DNA from: a virus | IMG/VR virus record: IMGVR_UViG_3300029826_000001 | Location: 3,304 to 67,303 of that record | Length of the DNA stretch: 64,000 nt | Reading direction: 5' to 3' (one strand) | Shown: positions 560 through 62,179 of the stretch, piece after piece | Layout: each line of letters starts with the position of its first letter | Numbering within the stretch: position 1 is the first letter of the stretch | Position numbers and translations under genes: made by a program | The notes under the pieces: model-generated | What the model was told of the DNA's origin: nothing | The model's database searches: none | What the model saw: only the letters and a program-made list of their open reading frames with translations

Positions 560-631
560 TTAAGCCAATAATTACTATAATGCATTAAGCAAAAAACCAA
601 CAAAGGTTACAAAATATCAAAAGGACTAGAT
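560..631 (+). promoter_or_regulatory. early promoter/leader cassette P1
   Basis: TTAAGCCAATAATTACTATAAT ... AAAAAACCAAC ... AAGGACTAGAT-ATG. Confidence 0.85.
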
Positions 632-859
632 ATGACAAAAACAGAGCAATTAAAACAGCTTATCGAAAACAACGAAATGGATAAGGCACTTTCACTTGCT
701 AAGTCATTTAAGATTTGGGATAGAAAGGAGGATAAAGAGGTGGTTATATTGGCTCATGAGTGCAATGTTAACCCAGACTTTTACAGACAGATAGGAAAGG
801 ATGTTCCAGCTTGTATTGAGGCTGGAGTAAACACGCTGAAAAGAATTTACTTGGACTAG
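632..859 (+). CDS. hypothetical early protein
   Basis: ORF directly after P1 and its RBS. Confidence 0.75.
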   Translation: MTKTEQLKQLIENNEMDKALSLAKSFKIWDRKEDKEVVILAHECNVNPDFYRQIGKDVPACIEAGVNTLKRIYLD

Positions 860-869
860 GAGGTTTATT

Positions 870-1097
870 ATGATGAGTGTAAATTTTATTATGGACTACG
901 AAAGTGGTATCGCATCAGATGTTGATACGTTGAAAAATTTTGCAGAAGGAATCAAAGACGGTTCTGTGTGGGGTCTTCAGGGTCACTACGGAAGAACTGC
1001 AAAAGCAATGATTGATGATGGATGGATTGAGCGTAATGGTGAGCTTACTGAAAAGGCTCTTGAATTTATAGCAGATGAGGAGATTGATAGTGAATAA
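870..1097 (+). CDS. hypothetical phage protein
   Basis: AGGAGG RBS; W-x-LQG-x-YGR-x-A motif typical of a small phage protein family. Confidence 0.75.
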   Translation: MMSVNFIMDYESGIASDVDTLKNFAEGIKDGSVWGLQGHYGRTAKAMIDDGWIERNGELTEKALEFIADEEIDSE

Positions 1098-1572
1098 TAT
1101 ACCAGTAAAGATTAAGGTTGAGACGGGTGGGCTTATCCCAGAATATAAAACAGATGGAGCTGGTTGTTTCGACCTATTTTCTCCAGATGATTATGTTTGG
1201 GAGACAGTAGCAATCGGTGGAGGTTTGGTTAAGGCAACTTGCGTGATTGACCTAAAAGTGAAGTTCGAGGTTCCAGACGGGTATATCATGAATATCTACC
1301 CAAGAAGTGGTTGGGGGTTCAAGATGGACATTCAACTTGCAAATGGTACTGGTAAAATTGATTCAGACTACAGAGGAAATGTAGCGGTGAAACTCATCAC
1401 ATATATTGAGAGAGATAGGTTGCCAGATTTAAGAAGAGGTGTTGGAATTGCTCAGGCTGAAATCATGCCAGTGTATAGAGCAGAGTTTGAGGTTGTCGAT
1501 GATCTATCTGAGACAAATAGAGGTGAAGGAGGTTTTGGTTCCACTGGTCACCACAGAGAGCACAAGGAGTAA
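1090..1572 (+). CDS. dut: dUTPase (trimeric)
   Basis: Motifs AGCFDL, PRSG, GKIDSDYRG, IAQ, RGEGGFGSTG; GTG start after GAGGAG preferred. Confidence 0.95.
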   Translation: MNNIPVKIKVETGGLIPEYKTDGAGCFDLFSPDDYVWETVAIGGGLVKATCVIDLKVKFEVPDGYIMNIYPRSGWGFKMDIQLANGTGKIDSDYRGNVAVKLITYIERDRLPDLRRGVGIAQAEIMPVYRAEFEVVDDLSETNRGEGGFGSTGHHREHKE

Positions 1573-1586
1573 GAATAGGAGGTATT

Positions 1587-1913
1587 ATGACTGATGATGA
1601 AAAAAGAAAAAACCTATCCAAAAACATAGAATATCTAGCTGGACACTTTAGGTCTCATGCAATGCTATCAAGGCTGTTAAAATGTCCTCCTAAGTTTGTA
1701 AATAGGGCAGTAAATACACCAAATGAATTAAGTATTGCATCAACCGATTGTGCAAGTAAGTCTTTGTGTATATCAGAAGAAGTGCTTCTTGGGGATTTGA
1801 AAACATTCAAGAAGTCTGTAGCAAGATGGATAAAAGATAAAAAAAGGATGATAGATGATAGAAGAGAAAGTAGAACTAGAAGTAAAAGACCTAAAAGCTC
1901 CAGTGCTAGGTGA
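1587..1913 (+). CDS. hypothetical protein, possibly HTH-like
   Basis: AGGAGG RBS; basic and helical. Confidence 0.6.
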   Translation: MTDDEKRKNLSKNIEYLAGHFRSHAMLSRLLKCPPKFVNRAVNTPNELSIASTDCASKSLCISEEVLLGDLKTFKKSVARWIKDKKRMIDDRRESRTRSKRPKSSSAR

Positions 1914-2919
1914 CATTCACTACCCAGTAACAGTTGTTGATATTGATGCACTTATAGATAAGTTCAAGAATATAAAAAATATTGACCTTGAAGATGAAAA
2001 TGTGAAAGAACACTATGCTCTGATAAGAGATGGTCAAAGACAATTCCAGAAAGCAAGGACGGCTATCGAGACAGCTAGAAAAGAGTTCAAAGCTCCAGCT
2101 ATTGCTTATGGCAAAAAAGTTGATGAGGTTGCAAAATCTCTTCAGGAAAAGATTGCTCCATATGAACAGTTCTTTGTAGAGCAGAGGAAGATTTATGATG
2201 ACCATGAAGCGAAGCTTAAAAAAGAAGCTGAAGAGGCAGAACGTAAGCGTATTGAGAAAATCAACAATAAGATTGATTTCATAAGAAACCTACCTCTTAC
2301 ACTTATTGATAAGTCGTCTGATGACATAAGGACATCTCTAAGTGATTTAAGAGCTGAGGACATAAACGATGAAACATACGAGGAGTTCACAGACATAGCA
2401 AAGCAAGTTCACGAGGTTACTTGTCTTACTCTTCAGAATATGGTTGATTCAAAAGCTGAAATCGAGCGTATAGAGAACCAAAGAAAAGAAGAGCTGAGAA
2501 TACAGCAGGAAGAAAAAGAGAAGCTAAGAAAAGAAGCTGAAGAAGCAAGAAAAGCTCAAGAAGAGGCTGAAAGAAAACTAAAAGAACAAGCTGATGCAAT
2601 CAGGGCTAAAGAAGAAGCAGAAGCAAAAGCAAAAGATGATAAAGAGATAAGAGTAAAAAGAGAAGAAGAAGAGGCGAGAATTGAAAGAGAAAAGAAAGAA
2701 CAAGAGCAAAAAGAAAGAGATGAAGCAGAAGCAAGAAAAGCTCAAGAAGAGGCAAGAATCAAAGCTGAGTATGAAGCTAAGTCCGAGTCAATCAAGGAAG
2801 CTAGAAGAGAGTCAATCGAAGGCATTGCAACCATTTCTGGTCTAAGTAAAGTAAAAGCAAGAATGATTGTTGAGGCAATAGAGCAAGGTGAAGTTCCTCA
2901 CATCAAATTCGAGCTATAA
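1855..2919 (+). CDS. coiled-coil phage protein (DUF1351-like)
   Basis: ARTAIETARKEFKAP motif and long E/K/R/A heptad stretch. Confidence 0.6.
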   Translation: MIEEKVELEVKDLKAPVLGDIHYPVTVVDIDALIDKFKNIKNIDLEDENVKEHYALIRDGQRQFQKARTAIETARKEFKAPAIAYGKKVDEVAKSLQEKIAPYEQFFVEQRKIYDDHEAKLKKEAEEAERKRIEKINNKIDFIRNLPLTLIDKSSDDIRTSLSDLRAEDINDETYEEFTDIAKQVHEVTCLTLQNMVDSKAEIERIENQRKEELRIQQEEKEKLRKEAEEARKAQEEAERKLKEQADAIRAKEEAEAKAKDDKEIRVKREEEEARIEREKKEQEQKERDEAEARKAQEEARIKAEYEAKSESIKEARRESIEGIATISGLSKVKARMIVEAIEQGEVPHIKFEL

Positions 2920-2934
2920 GTAGAAGCCCTAATA

Positions 2935-2962: not shown

Positions 2963-5431
2963 TTGGAGCACATTTTGGCAGAGATTAAAGACAAGAATCC
3001 CTCCACAGAGGAGTTAACACCGAACTCAACATTCGCTGGTGTCGTTGGTAGCTTACCTAATCCAGATGTAATCCTAAGAAAAGCTGGTATCTCAACCACT
3101 GTATATGATGAGATGCTTTTCGACCCTCAAATTTTCTCAGCATACCAAAAACGTAAAAGAAAAATCCAAAGACTAAAGTATATCGTTGAAGGTGAAGACA
3201 AGGAGATTGTAGATTTCGTTGTTGAAACAATAGATTATCTCAATATGAAAAACCTTATTGTTGGTATGGTTCGTGCAATACCTCATGGATTTTCAGTTGC
3301 AGAGATTATGTGGGAAAATTATGAAGGTAAATGGATTCCAGTAGAACTGAAAAATAGAAGTAACCAGAAGTTTGAGTTTAATGAGCTATCACAACTTACA
3401 TATGAGTCTCAAGAAGGAATGGTTGTTGCACCGTATGGCAAATTTGTTCTTCATAGGAACGATTATGATGATGCTGGGAATCCGTATGGAACATCACTTA
3501 ATTCAAGATGCTACTGGTATTGGAGATTCAAGAAGCATGGATGGAAGGTATGGGGATTATACCTAGAGAAGTATGGAGACCCAGCACTTGTTTTGAAGTC
3601 AGAAGAAACAGATGAGGAGAAAATAAAAGAATTGCTTGTAAAGCTTGATAGCGTGTCAAGTGGTTCAAATATGGTTATAGGTTCACAAGAAAGTGTAGAT
3701 GCAATCAGTATACCGAATGCTGGCTCAATTGGATATGCAGATTATACAAAAGAAGCTGATAAGCAGATAGCAAAAATATATCTCGGTTCATCTCTTCTTA
3801 TGGATGAGACATCAACTGGAACATATGCTACATCGGTTGAGCATGGAAACGACCTAGATGACATTATCATATCAGATGCAACTTCCATTGCTGAGTCAAT
3901 AAGAGATTATCTTTTGAAGCCTATGATTTACTTCAACTATGGAGAAGATAGAGAAGTTCCTTTTATTAAGTTCTATAGTGATGCTGAGATGCAAGAGCAA
4001 GAGACTCAAGGTGGAACAGAGGAAGAGGTTGAAAAAGAAGAAGAGGTAAAAAAAGAAGAAGAAAAGACGGAAGCATCTTCAAAAAATATCTCAGAGAATT
4101 TTTTTTTTGACGATTTGACTGTAGAACAGTTTGCGGAACTTCCAGTTTATAAGCAAACACTTGAGAAATTAAGCTCTAATCTCGAAATAAAACAAATACC
4201 TATCTTCGATGAGATAAAAGCATTTAAAAGCTATTCTAAAGACCCACAAACGGCATTTTTCCAGCTACAAAACTTTTACAGTGATACCCTAGATAAAATC
4301 CATGAGAATCTTGGGTACGCAATGTTCTTTGTAAAGATGTATGCAAAACTAAACTCTCCTACCTACAAAGCAAGCTTTATTAGTGGAGTCAAGGATATAT
4401 TTGCAACAAGCAAAATAGAGGACGCTATAATACAGCCATATGAAGAAGTGAGAAAACTCTTCAAGTCTAAAATAGTGCTTACAGATGAAGAATATCTATT
4501 GCTTGTAAATGAAGCTAAAAATGATGCGTTTTCAATATCTGGGTACAAATCAAAACAAGTTCTAAATGCATTGAAAGATATGCTTGAGCAAATGATTATT
4601 GATGGAGAAGGTGAGGCAGTATGGAAAAAGAAAGCAAGTGAACTTCTTGATTCTTATGGTATGTCTACAACAAAAGCACATCTTGGTAACGTATACAGAA
4701 CAAACCTATACAGTGAATATGCAAAAGCTGGGTACAAAGAGTACGAAAAAGTAAAAGATGAGTTCCCAGCATTGATGTATGATGCTATAGGTGATGCAAG
4801 AACAAGACCAACACACCTAGCACTTGATGGAAAGATATTCTGGGCTAACGACCCTATATGGGATACAATTTACCCACCGAATGGATACAACTGTAGATGT
4901 TCTGTGATTCCAATGTCTCAAAAGAAACTGAGTGGTGTAGAAGTTCAGAATGGAGCAGATTACACTGGAGAAAAGTATGCTCCAGATGATGGATGGGATT
5001 ATCATAGTGGTAGAGACTATAAGCCAGAGCCTAAAGTTATTTACGATAAAGACGCAAACAACACTATGACCTATTCAGAGTTCGGTCTTCCAGATAATCT
5101 TGAACCAGTAAAAAAGTCTTCATTCTCGTCAGTAGATGATGTTGCTGGAGATGTTCTTGGTGGAGACGTAAAGATTGATAGTGATGTTGAAGATATTGAT
5201 GTCATTAGAAATATTCTATCTAAACCGCAAGAGGTGTGGATTTACTCAATGTATAGCAAGTCAAAAAATTTAGTACACAAAGTAAACTATGTAAAAAGCT
5301 TCATTGATGGTGACACGATAGAGTCATTCACAGTATCTGTCGATAGTAGAGGAAACTTTATTTCTTTGAGCAAAATGAGTAAAAAAGACAGAAGCGGATT
5401 CCCTATCTATGTAAACGAGTTTGAATCATAG
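2963..5431 (+). CDS. portal protein (Mu gp29/DUF935-like) fused to a MuF (gp30/SPP1 gp7-like) minor head domain and a PBECR2-like C-terminus
   Basis: N-term YDEM..DPQI, HGFSVAEIMW, NPYG, W..YLEKYGDP; MuF motif RTN...D.RTRPTH.ALDG...W....PPNGYNCRC; C-term ILSKPQEVW...YVKSF; acidic linker. Confidence 0.9.
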   Translation: MEHILAEIKDKNPSTEELTPNSTFAGVVGSLPNPDVILRKAGISTTVYDEMLFDPQIFSAYQKRKRKIQRLKYIVEGEDKEIVDFVVETIDYLNMKNLIVGMVRAIPHGFSVAEIMWENYEGKWIPVELKNRSNQKFEFNELSQLTYESQEGMVVAPYGKFVLHRNDYDDAGNPYGTSLNSRCYWYWRFKKHGWKVWGLYLEKYGDPALVLKSEETDEEKIKELLVKLDSVSSGSNMVIGSQESVDAISIPNAGSIGYADYTKEADKQIAKIYLGSSLLMDETSTGTYATSVEHGNDLDDIIISDATSIAESIRDYLLKPMIYFNYGEDREVPFIKFYSDAEMQEQETQGGTEEEVEKEEEVKKEEEKTEASSKNISENFFFDDLTVEQFAELPVYKQTLEKLSSNLEIKQIPIFDEIKAFKSYSKDPQTAFFQLQNFYSDTLDKIHENLGYAMFFVKMYAKLNSPTYKASFISGVKDIFATSKIEDAIIQPYEEVRKLFKSKIVLTDEEYLLLVNEAKNDAFSISGYKSKQVLNALKDMLEQMIIDGEGEAVWKKKASELLDSYGMSTTKAHLGNVYRTNLYSEYAKAGYKEYEKVKDEFPALMYDAIGDARTRPTHLALDGKIFWANDPIWDTIYPPNGYNCRCSVIPMSQKKLSGVEVQNGADYTGEKYAPDDGWDYHSGRDYKPEPKVIYDKDANNTMTYSEFGLPDNLEPVKKSSFSSVDDVAGDVLGGDVKIDSDVEDIDVIRNILSKPQEVWIYSMYSKSKNLVHKVNYVKSFIDGDTIESFTVSVDSRGNFISLSKMSKKDRSGFPIYVNEFES

Positions 5432-36300: not shown

Positions 36301-36344
36301 TTTCAAAACTAAGATAAAAACACAATACAAAGTTAAGAAATAAA

Positions 36345-36400
36345 TAAGTCAATAATTGTTATAATATTCTTTGCAATAAAACCAACACAAAGGATTAGAT
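36345..36400 (+). promoter_or_regulatory. early promoter/leader cassette P2
   Basis: TAAGTCAATAATTGTTATAAT...AAAACCAAC..AAGGATTAGAT-ATG. Confidence 0.85.
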
Positions 36401-39829: not shown

Positions 39830-39870
39830 TTAATCTAAAATATAATTCCATTTTAGATAAAGAATTTTTA
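39830..39870 (+). terminator. AT-rich hairpin after the SSB gene
   Basis: ATCTAAAAT / ATTTTAGAT stem followed by a T run. Confidence 0.4.
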
Positions 39871-39889
39871 AGGTAAGTATTGTTATAAT
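39867..39889 (+). promoter_or_regulatory. promoter for the ncRNA/initiator unit
   Basis: TTTAAGGTAAGTATTGTTATAAT; variant of the early promoter lacking the CCAATAA core and the AACCAAC leader. Confidence 0.75.
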
Positions 39890-39895
39890 ACGACA

Positions 39896-40160
39896 ACCTA
39901 TGAAGGAGGGTTTGTTGGTTGCTTCCCATCCTTCAAAAAGTAGGTAGGAGTAACAGCCTTAGCTCCGATTCTTGACATGAAGCTAGTTTCCTAGTCCGAA
40001 CGGTCGCTTCATTCAAGAAGGTTCCTTATGTAATTTTAATGCAGTTGTCCAACTGTATCAGACTTTGGGTGCCACCCCTCTTCCCCTTTAGGCACCCAAG
40101 TTTGATTATCTGACTGTTGCATTAAGATTATCCTCAAGGATTTGGCATTGGACAACTGCT
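39896..40160 (+). ncRNA. structured multi-hairpin RNA; candidate antisense regulator of early leaders
   Basis: Stems ACCTA-TGAAGGA-GGG/CCC-TCCTTCA-TAGGT, TTCTTGA-ATGAAGC/GCTTCAT-TCAAGAA and TTGGGTGCC/GGCACCCAA; first stem starts 7 nt after TATAAT; no credible ORF. Confidence 0.7.
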
Positions 40161-40189
40161 AATCAATCTTAAATAAAATTGTCGAAAGA

Positions 40190-44903: not shown

Positions 44904-46212
44904 AGTAGAGACACTAGTAGAACAAATTGATATGACGGCTCTGTTCGAGACAACGAACAAAAAGTACATTCCGTTCTACTGGGATATGTCAAGATATTTT
45001 ATTGCATTCGGTGGTGCTGGGTCAGGTAAATCAAGATGGGTCGGTCAAAAGATGCTCTATCGTATGCTTGATGAGACCCCACATAGAATACTTATTGTAA
45101 GAAAGGTAGCAACAACCCTAAGAAAGTCTGTCTTCCAGCTTATGGTCGACTATATCCATAAGTACGGTCTGTCATCGAAGTTCATAATCAGAAAAGGCGA
45201 TATGACCATAGAGTGTGAGAATGGTAACCAGATGTACTTTATGGGTCTTGATGATGTTGAGAAGCTAAAGTCAATCGAGGGTATTACAAGCATATGGATT
45301 GAAGAAGCAAGTGAAATCACTCAAGACGACTTCTTGCAACTAGACTTGCGTTTGAGAGGTTACACTCAAAACTATCAGCAGATTACATTATCATTTAACC
45401 CGATATCTGAGCACCATTGGATTAGAAAACTCTTTTTTACTGATGATATCGAAGAAACGATTGATGAAGACGGATGCTACATCGGTGATGATGTAACGAT
45501 AGTGAAGTCAACTTATCTTGATAATGAGTACATAGACGATAGATATAAAAAGGTTCTCAACGACCTAAAGCTAAAAGACCTGAGAATGTATAATATATAC
45601 GCTCTTGGTAAGTGGGGTGTTCTTGGTAATTTGGTATTTAACCCATACAATGACATCACAAGGTTTCCGACAGTCGCACAGATTCCAGACCTACAAATAA
45701 CATACGGTGTTGACTTTGGTTTTACCAACCCATCAACATTTATAAAAATAGGTTATTCAAAGCTCAATAATGCACTATATTTGGATGAACTATATTACGA
45801 ATCAAACACAACCAAACCAGAATTTATAACAGCCGTCAAAAGGTCAAATCCAGACATGAAAGATATTGTCGGGTACGGTGACTCAGCTGAACCAGCCTCA
45901 ATCAAAGAATTTACTAAATCTGGGTTCAAGATGAAGTCGGCACACAAAGACACAAACATGAGTATCGACTTTATAAATAGGCATACTGTATACATCACAT
46001 CAAGAAGCAAGAATCTAAAAAAAGAGTGGGAAGGATACAAGTGGAAACAAAATAAGGATGGCGAGACGGTTGATGAGGTCGTAAAAACAAATGACCACTG
46101 TATAGATGCTGTTAGGTATGGTGCATACACTAAGTGGGGAATCATTGTAGACTCGAAGGGTCATGTTTCAGATAAGCAAATGTCAATCATCAAATCTTAT
46201 GGCAAATATTAA
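44896..46212 (+). CDS. terL: terminase large subunit, PBSX family
   Basis: GGAGSGKS, GLDDVEKLKS, WIEEASE, SFNP, STYLDN, GVDFGF..P, DSAEP, NDHCIDAVRY. Confidence 0.95.
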   Translation: MSRVETLVEQIDMTALFETTNKKYIPFYWDMSRYFIAFGGAGSGKSRWVGQKMLYRMLDETPHRILIVRKVATTLRKSVFQLMVDYIHKYGLSSKFIIRKGDMTIECENGNQMYFMGLDDVEKLKSIEGITSIWIEEASEITQDDFLQLDLRLRGYTQNYQQITLSFNPISEHHWIRKLFFTDDIEETIDEDGCYIGDDVTIVKSTYLDNEYIDDRYKKVLNDLKLKDLRMYNIYALGKWGVLGNLVFNPYNDITRFPTVAQIPDLQITYGVDFGFTNPSTFIKIGYSKLNNALYLDELYYESNTTKPEFITAVKRSNPDMKDIVGYGDSAEPASIKEFTKSGFKMKSAHKDTNMSIDFINRHTVYITSRSKNLKKEWEGYKWKQNKDGETVDEVVKTNDHCIDAVRYGAYTKWGIIVDSKGHVSDKQMSIIKSYGKY

Positions 46213-46220
46213 TATTAAAA

Positions 46221-46274
46221 TAAGCCAATAATTGTTATAATAATGTACACAAAAACCAACAAAAAAGGAAACAG
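46221..46274 (+). promoter_or_regulatory. early promoter/leader cassette P3
   Basis: TAAGCCAATAATTGTTATAAT...AAAAACCAAC AAAAAAGGAAACAG-ATG; lacks GGACTAG. Confidence 0.85.
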
Positions 46275-50240: not shown

Positions 50241-50977
50241 TGAGCAGTAAATGGAAACTAGTCGAGGTAAACGTAGATGAGGTTGAGTTCACAGAGGTGA
50301 ATGCAAATAGGATGTCTCAATCTGATTTTGATAAGCTTGTGAACAACATAAGAACAAGCGGTCTAAGTTCAGTGATTGCTTGCTACAGAAGAAAAGATGA
50401 TGGCAAGTATGTAATCATCAGTGGTAATCATAGATTCAGAGCTTGTCTAAAGTTGGGCTATACAAAAATCAATATTCTATATGCTGATGAACAAGATATG
50501 TCACACGATGAAATAGTGGCATTGCAGTTATCCCACAACTCATTACATGGTGATGATGATAGAGCGATTCTAAAGAGACTTATGGATGAAATCAAGGATA
50601 TAGATTTTAAAGAGTTCGCTCACATTCAGATTGATGATATTGATGTCGATGATATGTTCAGTGGTTCAATAGTTCCAATGTCTGAGCACTATTCAGTATC
50701 ATTGGTTCTATATAAGAAGGACAAAGAATCAATAGAAGAGCTTATGAGTATTGTTGAAGACAACAACAAAGTAAACGATATGGTTATTCTGGCAGATGGA
50801 GAAAAAAATGAAAAAGTGTTCTTGGAAATGATTTCAGATATCAAGAAAGATTTTGACATAAAGTCATCTAGTATCGCTTTTTCAAAACTACTAGAACTGG
50901 CTAAAGCTGGTTACGGCACACTAGGAACTGACGATGTAGACCCAGAAGAGTTTAGTGAGATACAATCTGAAGACTAA
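50240..50977 (+). CDS. ParB/Srx-family protein
   Basis: NAN.MS..DF.KL..NI...G, Y.IISGNHR.RA, LQLSHNSL.G.DD. Confidence 0.88.
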   Translation: MSSKWKLVEVNVDEVEFTEVNANRMSQSDFDKLVNNIRTSGLSSVIACYRRKDDGKYVIISGNHRFRACLKLGYTKINILYADEQDMSHDEIVALQLSHNSLHGDDDRAILKRLMDEIKDIDFKEFAHIQIDDIDVDDMFSGSIVPMSEHYSVSLVLYKKDKESIEELMSIVEDNNKVNDMVILADGEKNEKVFLEMISDIKKDFDIKSSSIAFSKLLELAKAGYGTLGTDDVDPEEFSEIQSED

Positions 50978-50984
50978 GTTTATT

Positions 50985-51039
50985 TTAAGCCAATAAATGT
51001 CATAATACTTGTACTTAAAAACCAACATAAGGACTAGAC
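50985..51039 (+). promoter_or_regulatory. early promoter/leader cassette P4
   Basis: TTAAGCCAATAAATGTCATAAT...AAAAACCAAC.TAAGGACTAGAC-ATG. Confidence 0.85.
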
Positions 51040-51885: not shown

Positions 51886-52140
51886 ATGAGTAAAGTAAGA
51901 GGCAAAAAAGAGGAAATCACTTGTGCTTGTGGTTGTGGAAGAAAAAGACTCGTTAGAGTTGCAGATATAAAACGTGGATGGGGGAAATACTTCAACAAGT
52001 CATGCAAAGCAAGACATCAGGAAAAGAGAACTGGTCAATATGCTGATTACCTACATAGAAGAGCAACGTGTACAAGCGAGGTTGACTGCATTGAAAGCAG
52101 TTTCCACCCGCACGACCCATATTCTCTCGGTCAAGAATAA
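51886..52140 (+). CDS. zinc-finger-like phage protein
   Basis: C.CGCG.....R.AD.KRGWGKY..KSCKA..Q..RTG. Confidence 0.7.
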   Translation: MSKVRGKKEEITCACGCGRKRLVRVADIKRGWGKYFNKSCKARHQEKRTGQYADYLHRRATCTSEVDCIESSFHPHDPYSLGQE

Positions 52141-52147
52141 GTAATAT

Positions 52148-52203
52148 TTAAGCCAATAATTGTTATAATACAGATACCAACAAACCAACAAAAAGGACTA
52201 AAA
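52148..52203 (+). promoter_or_regulatory. early promoter/leader cassette P5
   Basis: TTAAGCCAATAATTGTTATAAT...ACCAACAAACCAAC AAAAAGGACTAAAA-ATG; motif duplicated. Confidence 0.85.
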
Positions 52204-53692: not shown

Positions 53693-53932
53693 ATGAGTGT
53701 AGTTAAATGTGCAAGAAGAGGATGTGATTCCATGTGTTGTACTGTGTACAGTAGTAGTTATGGATATCTTTGTAATGAATGCTTTGAAGAGATGAAAACA
53801 TATCTTGCAATAGAGTTCAAGTTCCATTCACTTGGAATAGCTGGAGAAATGTTCATGAATACAACAAAGCCAAACAAGTATGAGGCTGAATATATTGATA
53901 AGTGGTGCGATGAAGAATTTAAATCTATATGA
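53693..53932 (+). CDS. Cys-rich small protein
   Basis: C.R.GC...C..YS..YGYLC.ECFEE. Confidence 0.65.
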   Translation: MSVVKCARRGCDSMCCTVYSSSYGYLCNECFEEMKTYLAIEFKFHSLGIAGEMFMNTTKPNKYEAEYIDKWCDEEFKSI

Positions 53933-53943
53933 TTTATAAAACT

Positions 53944-54015
53944 TTAAGCCAACAATTGTTATAATACGTTATATCAAAAAACCAACTTGATATAAAAAAA
54001 TACTAAGGACTAGAT
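53944..54015 (+). promoter_or_regulatory. early promoter/leader cassette P6 with hairpin
   Basis: TTAAGCCAACAATTGTTATAAT; TTATATCAA-AAAACCAAC-TTGATATAA; AAGGACTAGAT. Confidence 0.85.
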
Positions 54016-56356: not shown

Positions 56357-56359
56357 CAC

Positions 56360-56653: not shown

Positions 56654-56868
56654 TGACTAAACAGAGATTTGCATGGCTACCAACAATTGTATGGAACATG
56701 AAGAGTAGAAACTACAGATACACAGTAGCTTGGCTTGTATGGTACTGGGATGACGGAACTGGAGAAGAAGACAAACCAACTCATTTTCACAGACTATCGG
56801 ATGACCCGTATGAAGATACAAGGTTATGGAAAAGGCACAAGACCAGAACAAACACAAACAGATGGTAG
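56653..56868 (+). CDS. hypothetical Trp-rich protein
   Basis: FAWLP....WL motif; coupled. Confidence 0.6.
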   Translation: MTKQRFAWLPTIVWNMKSRNYRYTVAWLVWYWDDGTGEEDKPTHFHRLSDDPYEDTRLWKRHKTRTNTNRW

Positions 56869-56883
56869 ATTGCTAAGTAATAT

Positions 56884-56958
56884 TTAAGCCAATAAATGTT
56901 ATAATCAATGCATGAATAAAACCAACTATTCATAAATAAATTACAGAAGGACTAGATT
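56884..56958 (+). promoter_or_regulatory. early promoter/leader cassette P7 with hairpin
   Basis: TTAAGCCAATAAATGTTATAAT; ATGAATA-AAACCAAC-TATTCAT; AAGGACTAGA. Confidence 0.85.
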
Positions 56959-57309
56959 ATGGAAAATCTATTTAGACTCAACAGAAACGGACATACGGCA
57001 GAGGAAATTTTCGGTAAACCTACAGACGAGCTTGTTAAGATAACAATGGAAGATTTATACGCAGATATTCCTTTTGCACTGTTTATCTACAGAGCAACAA
57101 CGGTGAAGGCTGATTTAATGGCTCCAGTATCTATTATTCTTGGTGTATTAATCGGAAGAAGGCTTGAAGAGAGAGAAGACATGGTTGAGTATCTTGTTAA
57201 CTCAGTCAGGGATAGGGGTGATAGAGAGATTGTGATTAGGGCATTGAGTTTCATAACGGACAAGGAAGATATGATGAAAATTTTAAAAAGAGAGGAAGAG
57301 CAATGTTAG
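56959..57309 (+). CDS. hypothetical early protein
   Basis: First ORF after P7. Confidence 0.7.
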   Translation: MENLFRLNRNGHTAEEIFGKPTDELVKITMEDLYADIPFALFIYRATTVKADLMAPVSIILGVLIGRRLEEREDMVEYLVNSVRDRGDREIVIRALSFITDKEDMMKILKREEEQC

Positions 57310-57614
57310 AAAATTACGATATAAGGGAAATTAACGTATATGATGGTAATTTGAGTGTACCCAATACATTCCTTTACCTAATCGGTAAAAACCCGTCAAA
57401 TCGCATTCTATGTATGAAAATAGAGATTTATTCTCTTGATAGGGATACATATAAACCTAGAAACATTTCAACTGTTTACTGTCTACAGAAAGATGTAGTT
57501 GATAATAGGGATGAACTTATACACATGGCAATAGCAAATGTTACTGATTTGCCATACAGCATGAGAAAAAAAATGCTTATAGATGATGTAAACATTTGGG
57601 AGATTGAGCAATGA
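57303..57614 (+). CDS. hypothetical protein
   Basis: Coupled ORF. Confidence 0.6.
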   Translation: MLENYDIREINVYDGNLSVPNTFLYLIGKNPSNRILCMKIEIYSLDRDTYKPRNISTVYCLQKDVVDNRDELIHMAIANVTDLPYSMRKKMLIDDVNIWEIEQ

Positions 57615-57763
57615 GATATGAGGTCACATTCAAGGTGATGGTAGATGCTCCAAGCCCAACAAAGGCTAAAGAGTACGGTCAGAAATTTTGTGACACAATA
57701 AACAGTAAAGACTCACGCAATAAAGCTTGGGTGTCTCAAGTGGTGGAGAAAAAGAATGGTTGA
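57611..57763 (+). CDS. small hypothetical protein (50 aa, not in ORF track)
   Basis: ATGA-coupled MRYEVTFKV...KNG. Confidence 0.55.
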   Translation: MRYEVTFKVMVDAPSPTKAKEYGQKFCDTINSKDSRNKAWVSQVVEKKNG

Positions 57764-58001
57764 AGAATATTGGTTGGTAGTAGCAATAGCCATTGCTATT
57801 TTGTTTATGTATCTTAGAATGGAAAGGTATGTTGTTGTATGCTCTCAAGATGACTTCACTGCTTTCAGTGGAAGAAAGGCATTCATGACATATGATGATG
57901 CGTTGAAGTTCGCTGAATCAAAAGCAGACCATTTTGACTATGTGTTTATTGAGCATGGAGAGAATCAGGTTGATGTTGTAAGGATGAATGGTAGCAAATG
58001 A
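57756..58001 (+). CDS. small membrane-anchored protein
   Basis: N-terminal TM segment; GGAG RBS. Confidence 0.6.
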   Translation: MVEEYWLVVAIAIAILFMYLRMERYVVVCSQDDFTAFSGRKAFMTYDDALKFAESKADHFDYVFIEHGENQVDVVRMNGSK

Positions 58002-58062
58002 TGAAAGTTAGTGAAGACAGCATCTTTAAATATCTTGAAAAGATAGTATCAGGAGAGAGACA

Positions 58063-58260
58063 ATGAATGACAGAGTAAAAGAAATCCTTGAGAACATCAA
58101 GAAGATGGGTTTAAGTGAGTTGCAAGAATACAAGCGTAGGTTGTGGCTATCTACATCAAAGGACAAAACAAAACTGATTGATGCTTGTGATGAGAGAGAA
58201 TCAATGTTAAGCAAAAATAGTCCAATGATTGAATACTCGGATTTTGACGATATAAATTAA
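58063..58260 (+). CDS. hypothetical protein
   Basis: AGGAG RBS. Confidence 0.6.
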   Translation: MNDRVKEILENIKKMGLSELQEYKRRLWLSTSKDKTKLIDACDERESMLSKNSPMIEYSDFDDIN

Positions 58261-58267
58261 GCAACTA

Positions 58268-58337
58268 TTAAGCCAATAAATACTATAATATGATATGTCA
58301 AAAAACCAACTTGACAAATAAAAATAAGGACTAGAAA
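58268..58337 (+). promoter_or_regulatory. early promoter/leader cassette P8 with hairpin
   Basis: TTAAGCCAATAAATACTATAAT; TGTCAA-AAAACCAAC-TTGACA; AAGGACTAGAA. Confidence 0.85.
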
Positions 58338-58649
58338 ATGGCATACGCATACCCAATATGGAATAAAGTTGAAGCTTGTATCTATAACTCCGATAAAAGC
58401 TATGGAGCGAAAGAAACAAGCAAGGTAAACATCTTGGTAGGTAGTAGTAAGTCGAACTCTTACGAACTTGCAGAGGCAATCACAACAAAAAGAAGATACT
58501 TCGATGAGGATGCAAATGAATACAGATGGAAATTCAGACATTCTGTAGACGGTGTTATCCTCAAGGAAATAATCTTTAAAGACAACAAAGGTAAAGCTGG
58601 TGAGTTTATCAAAGAGCGTTCTGCACTCAAAAGAATGAAGGGGTTGTAA
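58338..58649 (+). CDS. hypothetical phage protein
   Basis: YPIWN.V.ACIY.S.KSYG...VG.S.SNS motif. Confidence 0.7.
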   Translation: MAYAYPIWNKVEACIYNSDKSYGAKETSKVNILVGSSKSNSYELAEAITTKRRYFDEDANEYRWKFRHSVDGVILKEIIFKDNKGKAGEFIKERSALKRMKGL

Positions 58650-58963
58650 TGACATACGAAGAGTTTGAGAAGAGAAGAGTAGAGCACTACGAAGGCATGA
58701 GAGAGGCTGGTGGTATTGCAAATGCATTTCAGGATGGATATGGAGATGACTACCCAGACTACACATATGAATCAGCAATGAAAGAGGCAGATGAGCATTA
58801 CGAAAAGTACGAACAGTTAGCAAAAGATGCGAACATGACGCTCGATACACTTGAGCTGTTTGATATCTTGGTTGAAAAATCAGCAAGAAAGCTGTTTGCA
58901 CAAGCAGACAAGAACAGAGACAAAGGTATGCTTAAAGCATCACTTGGAAGAAGGGTATCATGA
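58649..58963 (+). CDS. hypothetical protein
   Basis: Coupled ORF. Confidence 0.65.
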   Translation: MTYEEFEKRRVEHYEGMREAGGIANAFQDGYGDDYPDYTYESAMKEADEHYEKYEQLAKDANMTLDTLELFDILVEKSARKLFAQADKNRDKGMLKASLGRRVS

Positions 58964-59193
58964 CAAAGACAGTGAGGGGAACATACGGGTCTCTCAATAT
59001 CCCATGCAATGTATTTGTATATGTTAATCGTGATATGGTCTGGTACGCTGTTGAGGGTAGCTCAAATGTTAACGGAACATATGAGCAGATTGAAGATGGT
59101 GTTGATATTGAAAAAATCCATGATTGTGAGTATTTTTCATGGAAAGAAGATATCAACTCAGAAGATGATTTAGTAATTGCTGTAGAAGCATAA
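58960..59193 (+). CDS. hypothetical protein
   Basis: GTYGS...WY.VEGS.NVN motif. Confidence 0.65.
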   Translation: MTKTVRGTYGSLNIPCNVFVYVNRDMVWYAVEGSSNVNGTYEQIEDGVDIEKIHDCEYFSWKEDINSEDDLVIAVEA

Positions 59194-59200
59194 GGGAAGA

Positions 59201-59509
59201 ATGATGGGATTATACCTAGAGCCTAAAGGCGATAAAAATGAAAGAATCAAGTGGCTTGGTGACAACAAAGAGAAAACATATCATCTCGGTGTAGAAGACC
59301 CACTTATTAAGTATGAGTCAATTCCAGTAGATGAGGTTTTGGTATGTCTTGTAGATAACGGAGCTTTTGTAGCAATTGCTGTGTGTTACAGTAGACACGA
59401 ATATGGTGCTTTTGCTAAAGAAGATGGAAGAATCAAGATTTGGGCTACACTAAAGAAGAATGTAGCAAAAGCTGTGTGTCCTATGTGGGATTCATATATT
59501 AAAAACTAA
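59201..59509 (+). CDS. hypothetical phage protein
   Basis: VCLVDNG.F.A..V.Y...E...F...D.R...W. Confidence 0.7.
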   Translation: MMGLYLEPKGDKNERIKWLGDNKEKTYHLGVEDPLIKYESIPVDEVLVCLVDNGAFVAIAVCYSRHEYGAFAKEDGRIKIWATLKKNVAKAVCPMWDSYIKN

Positions 59510-59519
59510 GGAGAAAAAG

Positions 59520-60209
59520 ATGTTAGAAAAACTAGATACAAACGATTTGAGATTGCTACTCGCATACTGTGACAAGAATAGTCCTAAGTTAGAGCTGAAT
59601 GGTATTTGGATTAATGGAGAAAAAGGTCACATGGTAAGTACCAATACAAGAGCACTAATCGTGCTAAAAACAGCTCCAAGTGATGTAAACAATATAGTAC
59701 ATAGGGATAGTGTAGAACTGCTCACAAAGCTCACTACAGTGAATATGTCAAAAGGTGTTTGGATTTCAAACGAGAAGCTGTCAAACGGAAACGGAGAGAA
59801 GGTCATTGATGGTATTGGTATGCAGACATACGACATCCACAGCAGAGATAAAAAAGAGAATGTGATGGTAGTTGGTTCGGTCATACATGGAAAGTTCCCA
59901 GACTACACAAGAATCATTGCAGATGAGTCAAAATATGATACAGATTGGGATGGCGAAACAAAGTATTCAGATGATAACAACGAAAAACCTATCACAAAAA
60001 TGAAGGCAGAAAAGGTTCATGCTGAGTTCTTAAAGCAATCAATTGCTATGACTGGAACAGTTGTTGATGATGCATACATGAAGCCTATCATGGACTACAT
60101 CAAGCAGAAGGGTATCAGTGAGGTAACTTTGAAGTTTATCTCAACAGCGCATCCGATATATGTTGAGCATGATAACTTTGATTTTGTTGTTATGCCTGTT
60201 GTATTTTAA
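59520..60209 (+). CDS. DNA sliding-clamp (DnaN beta) domain-like protein
   Basis: LNGI.......VSTN..AL, GKFPDY.RII and C-terminal VVMP as in beta-clamp domains. Confidence 0.65.
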   Translation: MLEKLDTNDLRLLLAYCDKNSPKLELNGIWINGEKGHMVSTNTRALIVLKTAPSDVNNIVHRDSVELLTKLTTVNMSKGVWISNEKLSNGNGEKVIDGIGMQTYDIHSRDKKENVMVVGSVIHGKFPDYTRIIADESKYDTDWDGETKYSDDNNEKPITKMKAEKVHAEFLKQSIAMTGTVVDDAYMKPIMDYIKQKGISEVTLKFISTAHPIYVEHDNFDFVVMPVVF

Positions 60210-60216
60210 TTTGGCA

Positions 60217-60259
60217 ACCAGCACCAAGCTGTATTGGTGTTGGTATAATTTAATTTTTT
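60217..60259 (+). terminator. intrinsic terminator-like hairpin
   Basis: ACCAGCACCAA / TTGGTGTTGGT stem then a T-rich tail; its 3' arm overlaps TGGTATAAT. Confidence 0.5.
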
Positions 60260-60271
60260 AAAGGAGATGTT

Positions 60272-60490
60272 ATGACCAAGACCATGCTTATTTACGGGAA
60301 GACAAACTCATACTTTAGAGGTATGTTGTTTGAGGAAGCTATCAAGGAAAGATTGAAGCTTGTTGAGCCAAGATACTACGAGATGGAGACATCTAGCAAT
60401 CTCACATATCAAGAAGAGCTAATCAAGAAGGAGATGAGAGATGCCATTGAATGGTGTAGAAAGATGATAGAAGAGTTCGATGAAGACTAA
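60272..60490 (+). CDS. hypothetical protein
   Basis: AAGGAG RBS. Confidence 0.65.
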   Translation: MTKTMLIYGKTNSYFRGMLFEEAIKERLKLVEPRYYEMETSSNLTYQEELIKKEMRDAIEWCRKMIEEFDED

Positions 60491-60497
60491 GTATACT

Positions 60498-60572
60498 TTA
60501 AGCCAATTAATGTTATGATATAACTATCAAATAAAAACCAACATTTGATAAAACCAACACTAAGGACTAGAC
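60498..60572 (+). promoter_or_regulatory. early promoter/leader cassette P9 with hairpin
   Basis: TTAAGCCAATTAATGTTATGAT; TATCAAAT-AAAAACCAAC-ATTTGATA; second AAACCAAC; AAGGACTAGAC. Confidence 0.85.
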
Positions 60573-60830
60573 ATGACAGAAGAACGAAACATTGTTCTAT
60601 GGTACAGAAACAGAGCAGACAAAGACAAACTATACACATTTGATGAGATAGCTGATGGATTCCTTGAGAGTGAATTCTACTCAGACTACAAGAAGGAAAT
60701 GTATCCAAGTATCCAACAAGCACTGGTACATTACATCACAATGGAAGAAGGGCTGAATAGCTCTTATGAGGTGGATATGCTTGACCCCCTGCTTGGTCAT
60801 GTAATCAAAAGACACAAGGAGATGAGATGA
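60573..60830 (+). CDS. hypothetical early protein
   Basis: First ORF after P9. Confidence 0.7.
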   Translation: MTEERNIVLWYRNRADKDKLYTFDEIADGFLESEFYSDYKKEMYPSIQQALVHYITMEEGLNSSYEVDMLDPLLGHVIKRHKEMR

Positions 60831-61483
60831 AGTATGAAGAGTTTACACCAATGCACCAGATACACAAAGAAGATGTTGAAGGTGAGAGATTTAAGATTGA
60901 GAGACTTCATTTATCTGAAGAGGTTGTTGAGAGAGAGAAAAGAACAGCATGGAGAACTGCTGGTGGATATAATGAGGTGAGAGGTCTTGAGGCTGGAACC
61001 TATGTGAAGCTGGTTGATAAGAATAAACGTGAAATTGTGATGTCTGATACATGGATGGAACAAGCTACAAATATTGATTTTGTGAGAAAGGCAAATGGTC
61101 ATGTATTGATTGGTGGTCTTGGTATCGGTATGGTTGTACTTGCAATCCAAGATAAGCCAGAGGTTGAGTCAGTTACAGTAGTTGAGCTTCATCAGGAGGT
61201 TTATGACTTGACAATGAAGCAACTCAAACCTCACCTCAATGATAAGGTCAAAGTGGTGGTACAAGACATCCATGACTTCATACCAGACAGAAAGTATGAT
61301 GTCATCTACTGCGATATTTGGAATAACATCACCAGTGATAACTGGGAGGAGATGAAAGACCTCACAAAGAAGTTCAAGTATAAGGTGAACAGAGAGAATA
61401 AAAACCATATGCTAGACCACTGGAGAAAGAATGATGTTCATAGGCTGTACAAGAAAGAGCAAAATGAAAGATACTTCTGGTAG
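60827..61483 (+). CDS. class I SAM-binding protein (spermidine-synthase-like methyltransferase fold)
   Basis: VMSDT..E, VLIGGLGIG, VVE, YDVIY.DIW. Confidence 0.8.
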   Translation: MKYEEFTPMHQIHKEDVEGERFKIERLHLSEEVVEREKRTAWRTAGGYNEVRGLEAGTYVKLVDKNKREIVMSDTWMEQATNIDFVRKANGHVLIGGLGIGMVVLAIQDKPEVESVTVVELHQEVYDLTMKQLKPHLNDKVKVVVQDIHDFIPDRKYDVIYCDIWNNITSDNWEEMKDLTKKFKYKVNRENKNHMLDHWRKNDVHRLYKKEQNERYFW

Positions 61484-61492
61484 GAGGAAGAC

Positions 61493-61837
61493 ATGATTGA
61501 AGAAAAAGTTACCATGTACATCAGTGATGATAATAAAGTAAGAAGTGATGATAGGAAGCGTGTTGAAGAGTATGAGAAGCTTGTGTTAATCATCCAAGAT
61601 GTACAAAAAGAATTTGATGAAAGATTCATTGATAGTGAGTGGAAGTTTTTGATACAAATAGAAAATAGTTCCTATTCGAGAAATGAAAGGCTTGAGTATA
61701 TTGTTTCACATAAAGAGAATGGTAGAACTCCAGATGAGGAGCTATGCACAAGAGAAGATAAAATTATTGATGCAATAAAAGATATGTTCAAACCAGTACA
61801 GATAGTGTCTGGAAGCATTTATTATTGGTGTAAATAG
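61493..61837 (+). CDS. hypothetical protein
   Basis: AGGAGG RBS. Confidence 0.65.
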   Translation: MIEEKVTMYISDDNKVRSDDRKRVEEYEKLVLIIQDVQKEFDERFIDSEWKFLIQIENSSYSRNERLEYIVSHKENGRTPDEELCTREDKIIDAIKDMFKPVQIVSGSIYYWCK

Positions 61838-61846
61838 GAGTAAAGT

Positions 61847-62116
61847 ATGATAGACACAAACTCATGTGAGATTGTTGGACGCATTGGTAGCCTTAGAGTT
61901 TTCTCAACTATGAATATGACAAAGCAAGAAGGAACAAAAAACATACCAAATCCAAATAGGAGATGGTGGTTCCAGTTCTGGATTCAGAAAACAATAGAGG
62001 TTCCAAATATGGTTCCTATGACTAATGTTATTGTAGACCATTTGAATAATGCAATATATATCCATCCAGCTGTCTTGGATGAGCTGAAGAAGCTTGATGG
62101 ATTTCATTTAGTATAA
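61847..62116 (+). CDS. hypothetical protein
   Basis: AGGAG RBS; I.HP....L motif. Confidence 0.65.
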   Translation: MIDTNSCEIVGRIGSLRVFSTMNMTKQEGTKNIPNPNRRWWFQFWIQKTIEVPNMVPMTNVIVDHLNNAIYIHPAVLDELKKLDGFHLV

Positions 62117-62123
62117 GTACATT

Positions 62124-62179
62124 TTAAGCCAACAATTGTTATAATAATGAACCTTAAAAACCAACAAAAAGGATTATAC
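62124..62179 (+). promoter_or_regulatory. early promoter/leader cassette P10
   Basis: TTAAGCCAACAATTGTTATAAT; CCTT-AAAAACCAACAAA-AAGG; GGATTATAC-ATG. Confidence 0.85.

Follow-up and report, generated by a model that had tools for sequence, protein, structure and literature searches.

Repeated promoter-leader cassettes with an invariant tag, and a candidate two-site antisense RNA, in an uncultured marine-sediment phage

Background

Two kinds of genetic device, repeated promoter cassettes in T4-like phages and two-site antisense RNAs in temperate phages, are already known. In this work, we analyse a stretch of phage DNA in which devices of both kinds may act together. The stretch, which we call the window, comprises 64,000 nucleotides (nt) of IMG/VR record IMGVR_UViG_3300029826_000001 and corresponds to bases 3304-67303 of the single 67,303-bp contig of an uncultured, tailed phage from a marine-sediment metagenome. 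It carries ten copies of an intergenic cassette in which a promoter is followed by an invariant octamer, AAACCAAC (the motif), and a region at 39896..40189 on the + strand that is predicted to specify a structured non-coding RNA. Two loops of this RNA are complementary to two conserved blocks of the cassette leaders, one of which is the motif, and the RNA may be an antisense regulator of these leaders. The ten cassettes had been noticed in an earlier inspection of the letters of the window (the sequence-only reading), on which the present analysis follows up. Positions are window coordinates unless stated otherwise.

Several well-known systems are useful for comparison. Two-site antisense RNAs include the C4 RNA with its two loops, the CI RNA of phage P4 and OxyS, which acts on fhlA; we use them as analogies only. 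Plasmid control by ColE1 RNA I/RNA II and by R1 CopA/CopT involves loop-loop kissing between antisense partners that are cis-encoded and fully complementary. The leaders of ompA and of Bacillus aprE and ermC have 5'-terminal stem-loops that stabilise the mRNA, and the nut site of lambda (boxA plus boxB) and the ops element of RfaH are short, conserved, promoter-near leader elements of several operons.

The closest described counterpart of the cassette is the promoter early stem-loop (PeSL) of T4-like phages, a conserved intergenic unit of ~70-100 bp that occurs in many copies among small open reading frames (ORFs) without known relatives (ORFans) and has been proposed to serve as a shuffling joint (PMC2839356, PMC4122927). 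As described there, a PeSL has a full sigma-70 consensus (-35 and -10), an AT-rich upstream region and a GC-rich terminator stem-loop upstream of the promoter. The counterpart of the RNA is the C4 RNA of phages P1 and P7, which, as summarised in PMC8198154 (citing Citron and Schuster 1990), binds the immI transcript and blocks expression of icd and ant.

Results and discussion

The promoter cassette

When the whole 67,303-bp genome is searched for the promoter 21-mer, allowing up to five substitutions, 15 sites are found, 14 on the + strand and one, a weak match, on the minus strand. Eleven sites belong to full cassettes, namely the ten in the window (561, 36345, 46221, 50986, 52149, 53945, 56885, 58269, 60499 and 62125), exactly where the sequence-only reading had placed them, and an eleventh at genome position 1578. 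The other three + strand copies, at genome position 2622 and window positions 529 and 39869, are not followed by the motif.

In order, a cassette contains a stop codon in a TAAGTA-like element, TTTAAGCCAATAAT, TGnTATAAT, 11-15 unconserved nt, AAACCAAC, a variable leader and an ATG. The promoter core, TAAGCCAATAATTGTTATAAT, has an extended -10 element (TGnTATAAT in most copies) and no -35 hexamer: at 17 nt upstream of TATAAT there is GTAATA or a similar sequence, and the conserved block is TAAGCCAAT instead. A scan of 44001-64000 for two-hexamer promoters finds no cassette promoter in register. A second conserved block, AAGGACUAGA, covers the Shine-Dalgarno (SD) sequence and spacer before the ATG in 6-7 cassettes. 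The cassettes are intergenic. The gene in front ends within the TAAGTA element, its stop codon lying 8-15 nt ahead of the promoter core, so that a cassette occupies the entire intergenic space. The gap between this stop codon and the promoter is too small for a terminator stem-loop, and 44001-64000 contains 13 terminator-like sites, not one of them next to a cassette.

The motif is strongly over-represented in the window, with 14 copies against 2.48 expected and no shuffle out of 100 reaching 14; for AACCAAC the numbers are 23 observed and 7.9 expected. Of its 13 copies on the + strand, 11 lie in the ten cassettes (the one at 60499 has two) and 2 are in coding sequence (7728 and 56773). It is exact in all eleven cassettes and usually preceded by one or two extra A residues. 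Its distance from the -10 is 11-15 nt throughout, as the claim of a similar spacing after each promoter implied, and 12-13 nt in nine of the eleven. Compared column by column, the cassettes are conserved in the promoter core and the TAAGTA-like element, unconserved over the 11-15 nt that follow the -10, and invariant in the motif, while the promoter itself varies at up to 3 of its 21 positions. A literature search for the 8-mer AAACCAAC returned unrelated papers only.

The cassettes are very probably promoter-plus-leader units. They head all operons, among them the structural operon (632-36173, 35 kb), the RecT/exonuclease operon and the DNA-modification cluster, a distribution broader than the early gene modules to which they had been tied at first. 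By promoter geometry, transcription by the host RNA polymerase would start about 7 nt after the -10, and the motif would thus lie at about +5 to +13 of the primary transcripts. Like PeSLs, the cassettes are repeated stop-to-ATG promoter units among ORFans, here in eleven copies followed by an SD and an ATG. They differ from PeSLs in lacking a -35, in having no upstream terminator stem-loop (a hairpin, where present, is downstream, in the leader) and in carrying an invariant 8-mer tag, which does not figure in the description of PeSLs cited above. No paralogous genes lie next to the cassettes.

Leader structure

The leaders form two groups. In six short leaders the ATG follows the -10 at 33-35 nt, and the motif, 13-14 nt before the ATG, runs straight into A-rich AAAAAGGA and the SD. 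In the five long leaders the -10 and the ATG are 48-53 nt apart, with 27-32 nt between motif and ATG. Since the spacing to the -10 is fixed and the distance to the ATG varies, it is the promoter, not the start codon, that sets the position of the motif. Cassette 9 is exceptional in having a second exact motif 14 nt before its ATG. The sequence-only reading had assigned a doubled motif to cassettes 5 and 9; this is right for cassette 9, while the extra copy in cassette 5 amounts to ACCAAC, or 6 of the 8 bases. It had not mentioned the second conserved leader block, AAGGACTAGA, which spans the SD and spacer. GGACTAG occurs nine times on the + strand, in six cassette leaders, in the ribosome-binding site of the gene at 870 and twice inside genes.

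In four consecutive cassettes the motif is enclosed by a perfect stem: 9 bp in cassette 6 (promoter 53945, hairpin 53969-53995), 7 bp in cassette 7 (56885, 56912-56933), 6 bp in cassette 8 (58269, 58296-58316) and 8 bp in cassette 9 (60499, 60525-60550, around the first motif). Shuffling gives p values of 0.002, 0.013, 0.030 and 0.000 for these stems, respectively. The 3' arm follows the motif without a gap (0 nt) in each of them, and the 5' arm ends 0-2 nt before it. Counted from the -10, the first nt of the 5' arm is number 4, 7, 7 and 6, respectively, about where, by promoter geometry, a sigma-70-type transcript would be expected to start. The hairpins that had been described for cassettes 6-9 near the predicted +1 are, in short, real. 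Their arms do differ between cassettes, although not completely as had been thought: those of cassettes 6 and 8 have a common inner TCAA/TTGA with outer pairs that differ on both sides, and cassette 9 has the same pair in a displaced position. At 37 C these hairpins have low stability (-3.1 to -4.8 kcal/mol), which would rise at sediment temperatures.

The idea that the motif is displayed on 5' hairpins throughout does not extend to the other seven leaders, whose best flanking stems (2-5 bp) are at chance level (p 0.12-0.97). In particular, the 4-bp stems that were thought to pair into the SD in cassettes 4 and 10 are what chance provides (p 0.19-0.30, with the eleventh cassette likewise) and are mostly missing from the minimum free energy folds. 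When leaders are folded from the 7th nt after the -10, the mean unpaired probability of the motif is at least 0.83 in ten of eleven, against 0.47 in the cassette at 561. The motif appears to be kept single-stranded in one of two predicted ways, either within a leader that is A-rich and lacks structure or as part of the loop where a 5'-terminal hairpin forms.

An invariant motif that lies between unconserved flanks, is predicted to be unpaired and is framed by arms of differing sequence favours selection on the transcript, and we consider it somewhat probable that the motif acts at the RNA level. The same conclusion had been drawn in the sequence-only reading from hairpin display; the invariance, the unpaired state predicted in ten of eleven leaders and the framing in four speak for it, while the restriction of the hairpins to four of eleven leaders, and the unconserved hairpin loops of a related phage (L017, see below), take away part of its original basis.

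A role at the DNA level would make the motif a promoter-proximal element at about +5 to +13, that is, the operator of a phage regulator, a site for the loading or pausing of a processivity factor, as with RfaH-ops or Q, or a promoter-escape sequence. Anchoring to the -10 (12-13 nt in nine of eleven) is what such an element would show; promoter copies without the motif (genome 2622, window 529 and window 39869) indicate a separable module, and a 35-kb operon with one visible promoter would benefit from a processivity signal. However, a duplex site gives no reason for pairing, cassette-variable arms that end at the motif edges in four hairpins of four, and the second copy in cassette 9 is placed by the SD and not by the promoter. 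In addition, the motif is 8 bp long and non-palindromic, and no DNA-binding regulator is recognised among the proteins scanned except a weak helix-turn-helix (HTH) in the replication initiator. On balance, we regard a DNA-level element as unlikely.

The ten cassettes of the window, all on the + strand, are located as follows. Cassette 1 (546..631; promoter 561-581, AAACCAAC 594-601, GGACTAG 623-629, ATG 632) heads the operon that runs into the structural genes to 36173, and has a long leader without a significant hairpin. Cassette 2 (36330..36400) has the promoter variant TAAGTCAAT at 36345-36365, the motif at 36379-36386, a GGATTAG SD block and, at 36401, the ATG of RecT. Cassette 3 (46206..46274), with its promoter at 46221-46241 and the motif at 46253-46260, precedes the ATG of a DUF488-N3a gene at 46275. 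The promoter of cassette 4 (50971..51039) is at 50986-51006, followed by the motif (51019-51026), GGACTAG (51031-51037) and an ATG at 51040; in cassette 5 (52134..52203; promoter 52149-52169) ACCAAC precedes AAACCAAC at 52182-52189 and the ATG is at 52204. The four hairpin cassettes are cassette 6 (53930..54015; promoter 53945-53965, motif 53979-53986, GGACTAG 54007-54013, ATG 54016), cassette 7 (56870..56958; promoter 56885-56905, motif 56919-56926, GGACTAG 56949-56955, ATG 56959), cassette 8 (58254..58337; promoter 58269-58289, motif 58303-58310, GGACTAG 58328-58334, ATG 58338) and cassette 9 (60484..60572; promoter 60499-60519, motifs 60535-60542 and 60551-60558, GGACTAG 60564-60570, ATG 60573). 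Cassette 10 (62110..62179) has its promoter at 62125-62145, AAACCAAC at 62158-62165 and its ATG at 62180.

Two of the motif-less promoter copies can be described here. A weak tandem copy, CAAGTCAATAATTGTTATGAA, lies at 529..549 on the + strand, 4 substitutions from the consensus and 32 nt upstream of the 561 promoter. The other, TAAGCCAAACATTGTTATGAT, is in L041:2511-2659 (genome coordinates, outside the window); its leader extends ~10 nt before a 75-aa ORFan, and it is preceded by a GC-rich hairpin, GGGGTTG...CAACCCC. The gene that follows it would escape tag-based control. As a separate observation, just upstream of the RecT-operon cassette, window 36175-36230 contains three exact CCTATTGAYA repeats at 23-nt spacing, each within a short palindrome and followed by a very AT-rich stretch; from its sequence, this array looks like an operator or an origin.

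A predicted structured RNA from the 39869 promoter

The remaining motif-less copy, TAAGGTAAGTATTGTTATAAT at 39869..39889 on the + strand, is the twelfth promoter copy; it has a perfect TGnTATAAT and a family-like upstream element, and no AAACCAAC follows it. It lies in a 371-nt gap between the gene upstream and the replication-initiator gene at 40190. No ORF of at least 40 aa is present in 39930-40189 on either strand, and two short ORFs reach no further than the promoter and the 5' edge of the region. The predicted transcript is a structured non-coding RNA of ~220-300 nt (39896..40189, + strand), with its 5' end put at the 7th nt after the -10. Its 3' end is uncertain, and may be at ~40110, after a GC-rich hairpin, or result from read-through into the replication gene at 40190.

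The RNA folds into five helices on the + strand: H1 (39896-39945), H2 (39947-39966), H3 (39969-40019), H4 (~40023-40140) and H5 (40142-40162). Compared with shuffled sequences, the fold has a z score of -5.38 for 39890-40190 (301 nt) and -4.74 for 39896-40112 (217 nt), and no shuffle is as good; H1, H2 and H3 recur identically in every excerpt folded. The 5' arm of H1 starts at the 7th nt after its -10, as in the leader hairpins. In addition, CAGUUGUCCAA and UUGGACAACUG, 100 nt apart in the RNA, can be read from the sequence to be perfectly complementary, and could form a pseudoknot or an alternative fold. In a search of the window with Rfam only tRNAs reach the gathering score, and 39800-40250 has no relevant match up to E=10.

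The interval from the stop codon of the gene at 39213-39818 to the 39869 promoter contains an AU-rich hairpin (window 39815-39856, -10.2 kcal/mol, z -2.6); no other cassette-type promoter has an upstream stem-loop.

Predicted pairing of the RNA with the leaders

Two loops of the RNA match the two conserved blocks of the leaders. The apical loop of H1, UUUGUUGGUU (39911..39920, + strand), which contains GTTGGTT, is complementary to the leader sequence AACCAACAAA. The 8-nt loop of H3, CCUAGUCC (39990..39997, + strand), is complementary to GGACUAG(G) of the SD and spacer block, and its CTAGTCC has an unpaired probability of 0.80-0.91. On the + strand of the whole genome, CTAGTCC occurs once, in the H3 loop, and GTTGGTT seven times.

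Pairing energies were calculated as the helix energy plus the opening costs of both partners, using our own script on ViennaRNA and considering only uninterrupted helices of 6-14 bp. For all eleven leaders the best site in the RNA is the H1 or the H3 loop, at -6.0 to -9.1 kcal/mol (median -8.4), while 103 internal gene starts used as controls have a median of -4.1 kcal/mol. Through the first block, five leaders can pair over 10 nt, two over 8 nt and the four with hairpins over 7 nt, loop to loop; in cassette 5, where the motif is doubled, the complement to the base of the H1 loop reaches 11 nt (ACCAACAAACC). Complementarity to the second block is exact in six leaders and G-U compatible in one. 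When the + strand is divided into 671 windows of 300 nt (step 100), the three that contain H1 and H3 rank 1-3 in median pairing to the eleven leaders (-8.46, -8.40 and -7.05); the other 665 windows have a mean of -2.57 (sd 1.05), with the best at -6.58. The second gene of operon 1 (ATG 870) has a match as well: its ribosome-binding site, UUGGACUAGGAGGU (853..872, + strand), can form a 14-nt helix with the H3 loop and stem, which includes G-U pairs and a perfect 8-nt match to the loop.

A kissing-loop target was one of the roles suggested in the sequence-only reading, and a candidate partner can now be named, the RNA of 39896-40190, whose H1 and H3 loops are complementary to both blocks by computation. 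We tentatively favour, at a level of confidence somewhat short of even, the reading that this RNA regulates the leaders of all operons through two sites, by antisense or kissing contacts. Motif and SD block would then form a two-part address, read by a phage-encoded structured RNA transcribed from 39869. The H1 loop UUUGUUGGUU would pair with AACCAAC(AAA), kissing loop to loop where the leader has a hairpin (four leaders) and contacting a single strand elsewhere, and the H3 loop CCUAGUCC would pair with GGACUAG between the SD and the start codon. This second pairing would occlude the ribosome-binding site of the first cistron and block 30S binding, and the RNA would serve as a global post-transcriptional brake or timer on all phage operons. 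We infer that transcripts start where the promoters predict, that the 39869 promoter is active, and that the RNAs meet and pair with an effect on expression; least certain is the direction of this effect, which may be repression, stabilisation, or an action of the leaders back on the mRNA of the replication gene.

In having a structured RNA with loops complementary to two leader sites, one at the ribosome-binding site, the proposed system resembles the C4 type, the likeness here being a computational result. C4 and CI target a single temperate-phage operon, where they serve as immunity factors, and are processed from the transcript of their own target, whereas the candidate here has its own promoter, eleven would-be operon targets, five helices, a possible pseudoknot and a larger size (~220-300 nt). 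It also differs in matching no curated RNA family in Rfam, which includes a C4 model. Its likeness to the plasmid kissing RNAs lies in a loop-loop complementarity of 6-7 nt and a U-rich loop with a YUNR-like UUGG, but the partners here are trans-encoded and complementary over 7-11 nt.

Helix H4 has a C/U-rich loop of 17 nt, ACCCCUCUUCCCCUUUA (window 40074-40090), in which the purine-rich SDs of several internal genes (58960, 59201, 58649, 62424 and 57303) find their best accessible partner. In its sequence this loop resembles an anti-SD mimic.

Two other possibilities were considered and dropped. The RNA loops are not an inverted (flipped) cassette, because GTTGGTT precedes CTAGTCC, the opposite of the order in an inverted cassette. 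tRNA D-loops with GUUGGUU, including that of the phage tRNA-Met, were set aside as partners of the tag, as the D-loop is buried in a folded tRNA.

Alternatively, AAACCAAC may be a single-stranded RNA tag for a protein, either a phage ORFan or a host protein, that acts on stability, translation or processivity in the manner of N at nut, with the complementarity to the RNA coincidental. We consider this rather unlikely, though it has points in its favour: the motif is invariant, unpaired, near the 5' end and framed by a hairpin in four leaders, and the mostly ORFan non-structural genes, with their null results in Pfam and PHROGs, could hide such a protein. The nut and ops elements are likewise short, conserved and promoter-near in the leaders of several operons, and some copies of the motif lie at or inside a hairpin; but there is no sequence similarity to boxA or ops, and a hairpin accompanies just 4 of 11 copies. 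Against a protein tag, no N-, Q- or NusG-like protein and no recognisable RNA-binding, sigma or antiterminator domain is found among the proteins scanned. An antiterminator would also have no intrinsic terminators to act on beside the cassettes in 44001-64000. Moreover, a protein tag leaves unexplained why the best accessible leader complement of the genome should be in two loops of a promoter-driven structured RNA.

Comparison with related genomes

Near-identical DNA is absent from the phage collection, the exact promoter 21-mer from viral_contigs, and the promoter-plus-motif pattern from viral_contigs and metagenome_contigs. The two promoter-plus-motif matches in genome_contigs (Anabaena and Acholeplasmatales), each a single copy in coding-like sequence, were judged to be chance hits. 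Searches of viral_contigs with the portal, the large terminase (TerL) and the replication initiator find no relatives, and nothing similar to the non-coding RNA is present in the phage collection or in any retrieved locus. Homologues of TerL with 62-52% identity were found (P0002, P0003, P0005 and P0006); the contig that encodes P0002 does not appear among the matches in genome_contigs. The closest retrievable relative by TerL, at 54% identity, is L017, the contig of P0004; besides TerL it has only, and weakly, the small terminase (TerS) in common with our phage.

Downstream of its terminase, L017 (11598-20750) has at least 12 copies of a different ~120-nt cassette of its own, with an upstream inverted repeat, a TGnGAGAAT-type -10, a leader hairpin, an A/C-rich linker and a fixed SD block, AAGGCTCTATTATG. 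The combination of a promoter, a 5'-terminal hairpin, an A/C-rich linker and a fixed SD is shown by this to be a recurring design. The complement of the L017 SD block is not found in the 21 kb available, which is uninformative because about two thirds of that genome is missing. The hairpins of L017 have no conserved loop, and this weakens the inference that the hairpins in our phage exist to display the motif; hairpin and motif may be separate features that coincide for geometric reasons.

These observations bear on a further alternative, in which AAACCAAC has no specific partner. It would belong to a G-free stretch of A/C-rich, unstructured RNA that helps the 30S subunit to bind, as a standby site or an S1-type enhancer; the hairpins would protect the 5' end independently, the motif would owe its identity to descent or to gene conversion between cassettes, and the cassettes would double as PeSL-like recombination joints, a role that the sequence-only reading had suggested for early gene modules. 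The direct continuation of the motif into AAAAAGGA in the six short leaders agrees with this, as do a comparable A/C-rich linker before the SD of L017 (AAAAACAAAAAAAGG, with AAACCAAAAA in some cassettes), the 5'-terminal hairpins in 11 of 13 L017 cassettes, and the existence in T4-like phages of PeSL cassettes, described as repeated promoter units that shuffle ORFans (PMC2839356, PMC4122927). However, an enhancer that depends on composition needs no identity at eight of eight positions in 11 of 11 copies beside 12 unconserved nt, and the motif is 27-32 nt from the ATG in five leaders and inside a hairpin loop in four. Gene conversion would homogenise the flanks as well. A motif without a partner therefore seems to us very unlikely.

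The 5'-terminal stem-loops that stabilise mRNAs have their likeness in hairpins a few nt from the predicted 5' end, found in 4 of 11 leaders, in the non-coding RNA and in 11 of 13 L017 leaders. The stems of our leaders differ in being short, AU-rich and weak (-3 to -5 kcal/mol at 37 C), with an invariant loop that a pure stabiliser would not need.

Points that weigh against a two-site RNA regulator

Several observations count against a two-site antisense RNA. First, the structured region may merely be the 5' untranslated region of the replication-initiator gene at 40190. Second, 6 of the 103 control gene starts match or beat the leader median of -8.4 kcal/mol, five through the H4 loop pairing with purine-rich SDs and the sixth being the gene at 870, so that ordinary ribosome-binding sites can attain such energies. 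Each helix is just 7-10 bp, and the + strand contains 12 complement 7-mers for the first block and 4 for the second. Complements of the two blocks are found within 300 nt of each other at two places, 77 nt apart in the RNA and 292 nt apart within a gene (59579 and 59871), and both are present in 157 of 20,000 dinucleotide shuffles of the RNA (0.8%). Note that the complementarity was noticed before it was tested, and the pairing figures are to be taken as moderate, not strong, support.

Other points concern the leaders. All evidence comes from one genome, in which the tag is invariant and hence shows no co-variation with the loop, and no related genome was found with the cassette, in the phage, viral, metagenome and genome collections, or with the RNA, in the phage collection and the retrieved loci. 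The tight spacing between the motif and the -10 also fits a role at the DNA level. Finally, 11 of 13 L017 leaders have a hairpin that begins within the first four nt of the presumed transcript and has an unconserved loop, which may be 5'-end protection unrelated to the motif.

Gene content and host

The first ~120 bases of the contig recur at its end (L041:1-120 and window ~63880-64000), which suggests a circularly permuted or terminally redundant genome assembled as a circle. The GC content of the window is 35-40%, GC skew is positive throughout, and the large ORFs and called protein genes are on the + strand without exception. The sole sizeable minus-strand ORF (103-489, 128 aa), just upstream of the tandem promoters at 529 and 561, has no convincing family and one weak saposin-like match (E 0.002).

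Protein-family searches covered part of the proteome, from which most structural genes between 5456 and 25571 were left out. They identify a Mu-type portal fused to a Mu-F domain (2963-5431), a tape-measure protein, a large terminase, RecT, an exonuclease, an O-like replication initiator (the gene at 40190, with the weak HTH), a dUTPase and a VRR-NUC nuclease. Pfam gave no informative family for any of 45 non-structural proteins scanned as a set. Ten cistrons were scanned with PHROGs; nine have no family, namely eight first cistrons behind cassettes and the gene downstream of the motif-less copy at genome 2622, and the only match, by the first cistron of operon 1 (632-859), is to a family of unknown function. 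Neither a sigma factor, antiterminator, RNA-binding or repressor family nor an integrase or other recognised lysogeny gene is present among the proteins scanned.

The cluster at 46275-50977, which encodes DUF488-N3a, a 668-aa protein with amidoligase, DAM-like and GNAT-like domains and a ParB_N protein, suggests that the phage DNA may be hypermodified. ARAGORN calls four tRNA genes (Met, Asn, Ser and Gly) on the minus strand at 43372-43924, where two more tRNA-like sequences with T-arm-like motifs, not called by the program, are also seen. Between this cluster and the small-terminase gene, six exact and two one-mismatch copies of TTCGACAT occur in ~140 nt (43954-44090, minus strand), with one other exact copy in the window; these repeats may be iterons, a pac or terminase-binding site, or a tRNA promoter region. 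In L017, too, the small-terminase gene is preceded by repeats, in that case of ATTCGACCA.

The sequencing runs that contain this DNA are labelled marine sediment metagenome. Three DNA runs provided no variants at the cassettes or the RNA; one contains an identical low-depth copy, and two, the likely source runs, gave only short unrelated pieces. Cultured phages are distant, with at most 50% identity in TerL and 31% in the portal (tblastn against the phage collection), and their hosts are mixed. The named TerL homologues include those of Sulfurovum, Sulfurimonas and also Aneurinibacillus, in addition to a contig of a Sulfurovum metagenome-assembled genome. Promoters of Campylobacterota typically lack a -35 and have an extended -10, and a Campylobacterota host would fit the promoters described here.

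Conclusion

What is unusual in this genome is the combination of an invariant tag on all operon leaders, a second tag at the ribosome-binding site and a structured RNA with loops that match both. It is possible, though we consider it doubtful, that the phage is of a virulent type with a genome-wide RNA regulon, in which one RNA reads a two-part address on all operon leaders and so sets their translation or stability; its third, C/U-rich loop could also reach the purine-rich SDs of internal genes. If this is true, a single trans-acting RNA, and not proteins, would coordinate the entire expression programme of the phage, and the tag and its reader would make a compact, portable pair for synthetic multi-gene control. 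More generally, intergenic repeats that are read jointly with orphan structured RNAs can expose regulatory circuits in ORFan-rich uncultured phages.

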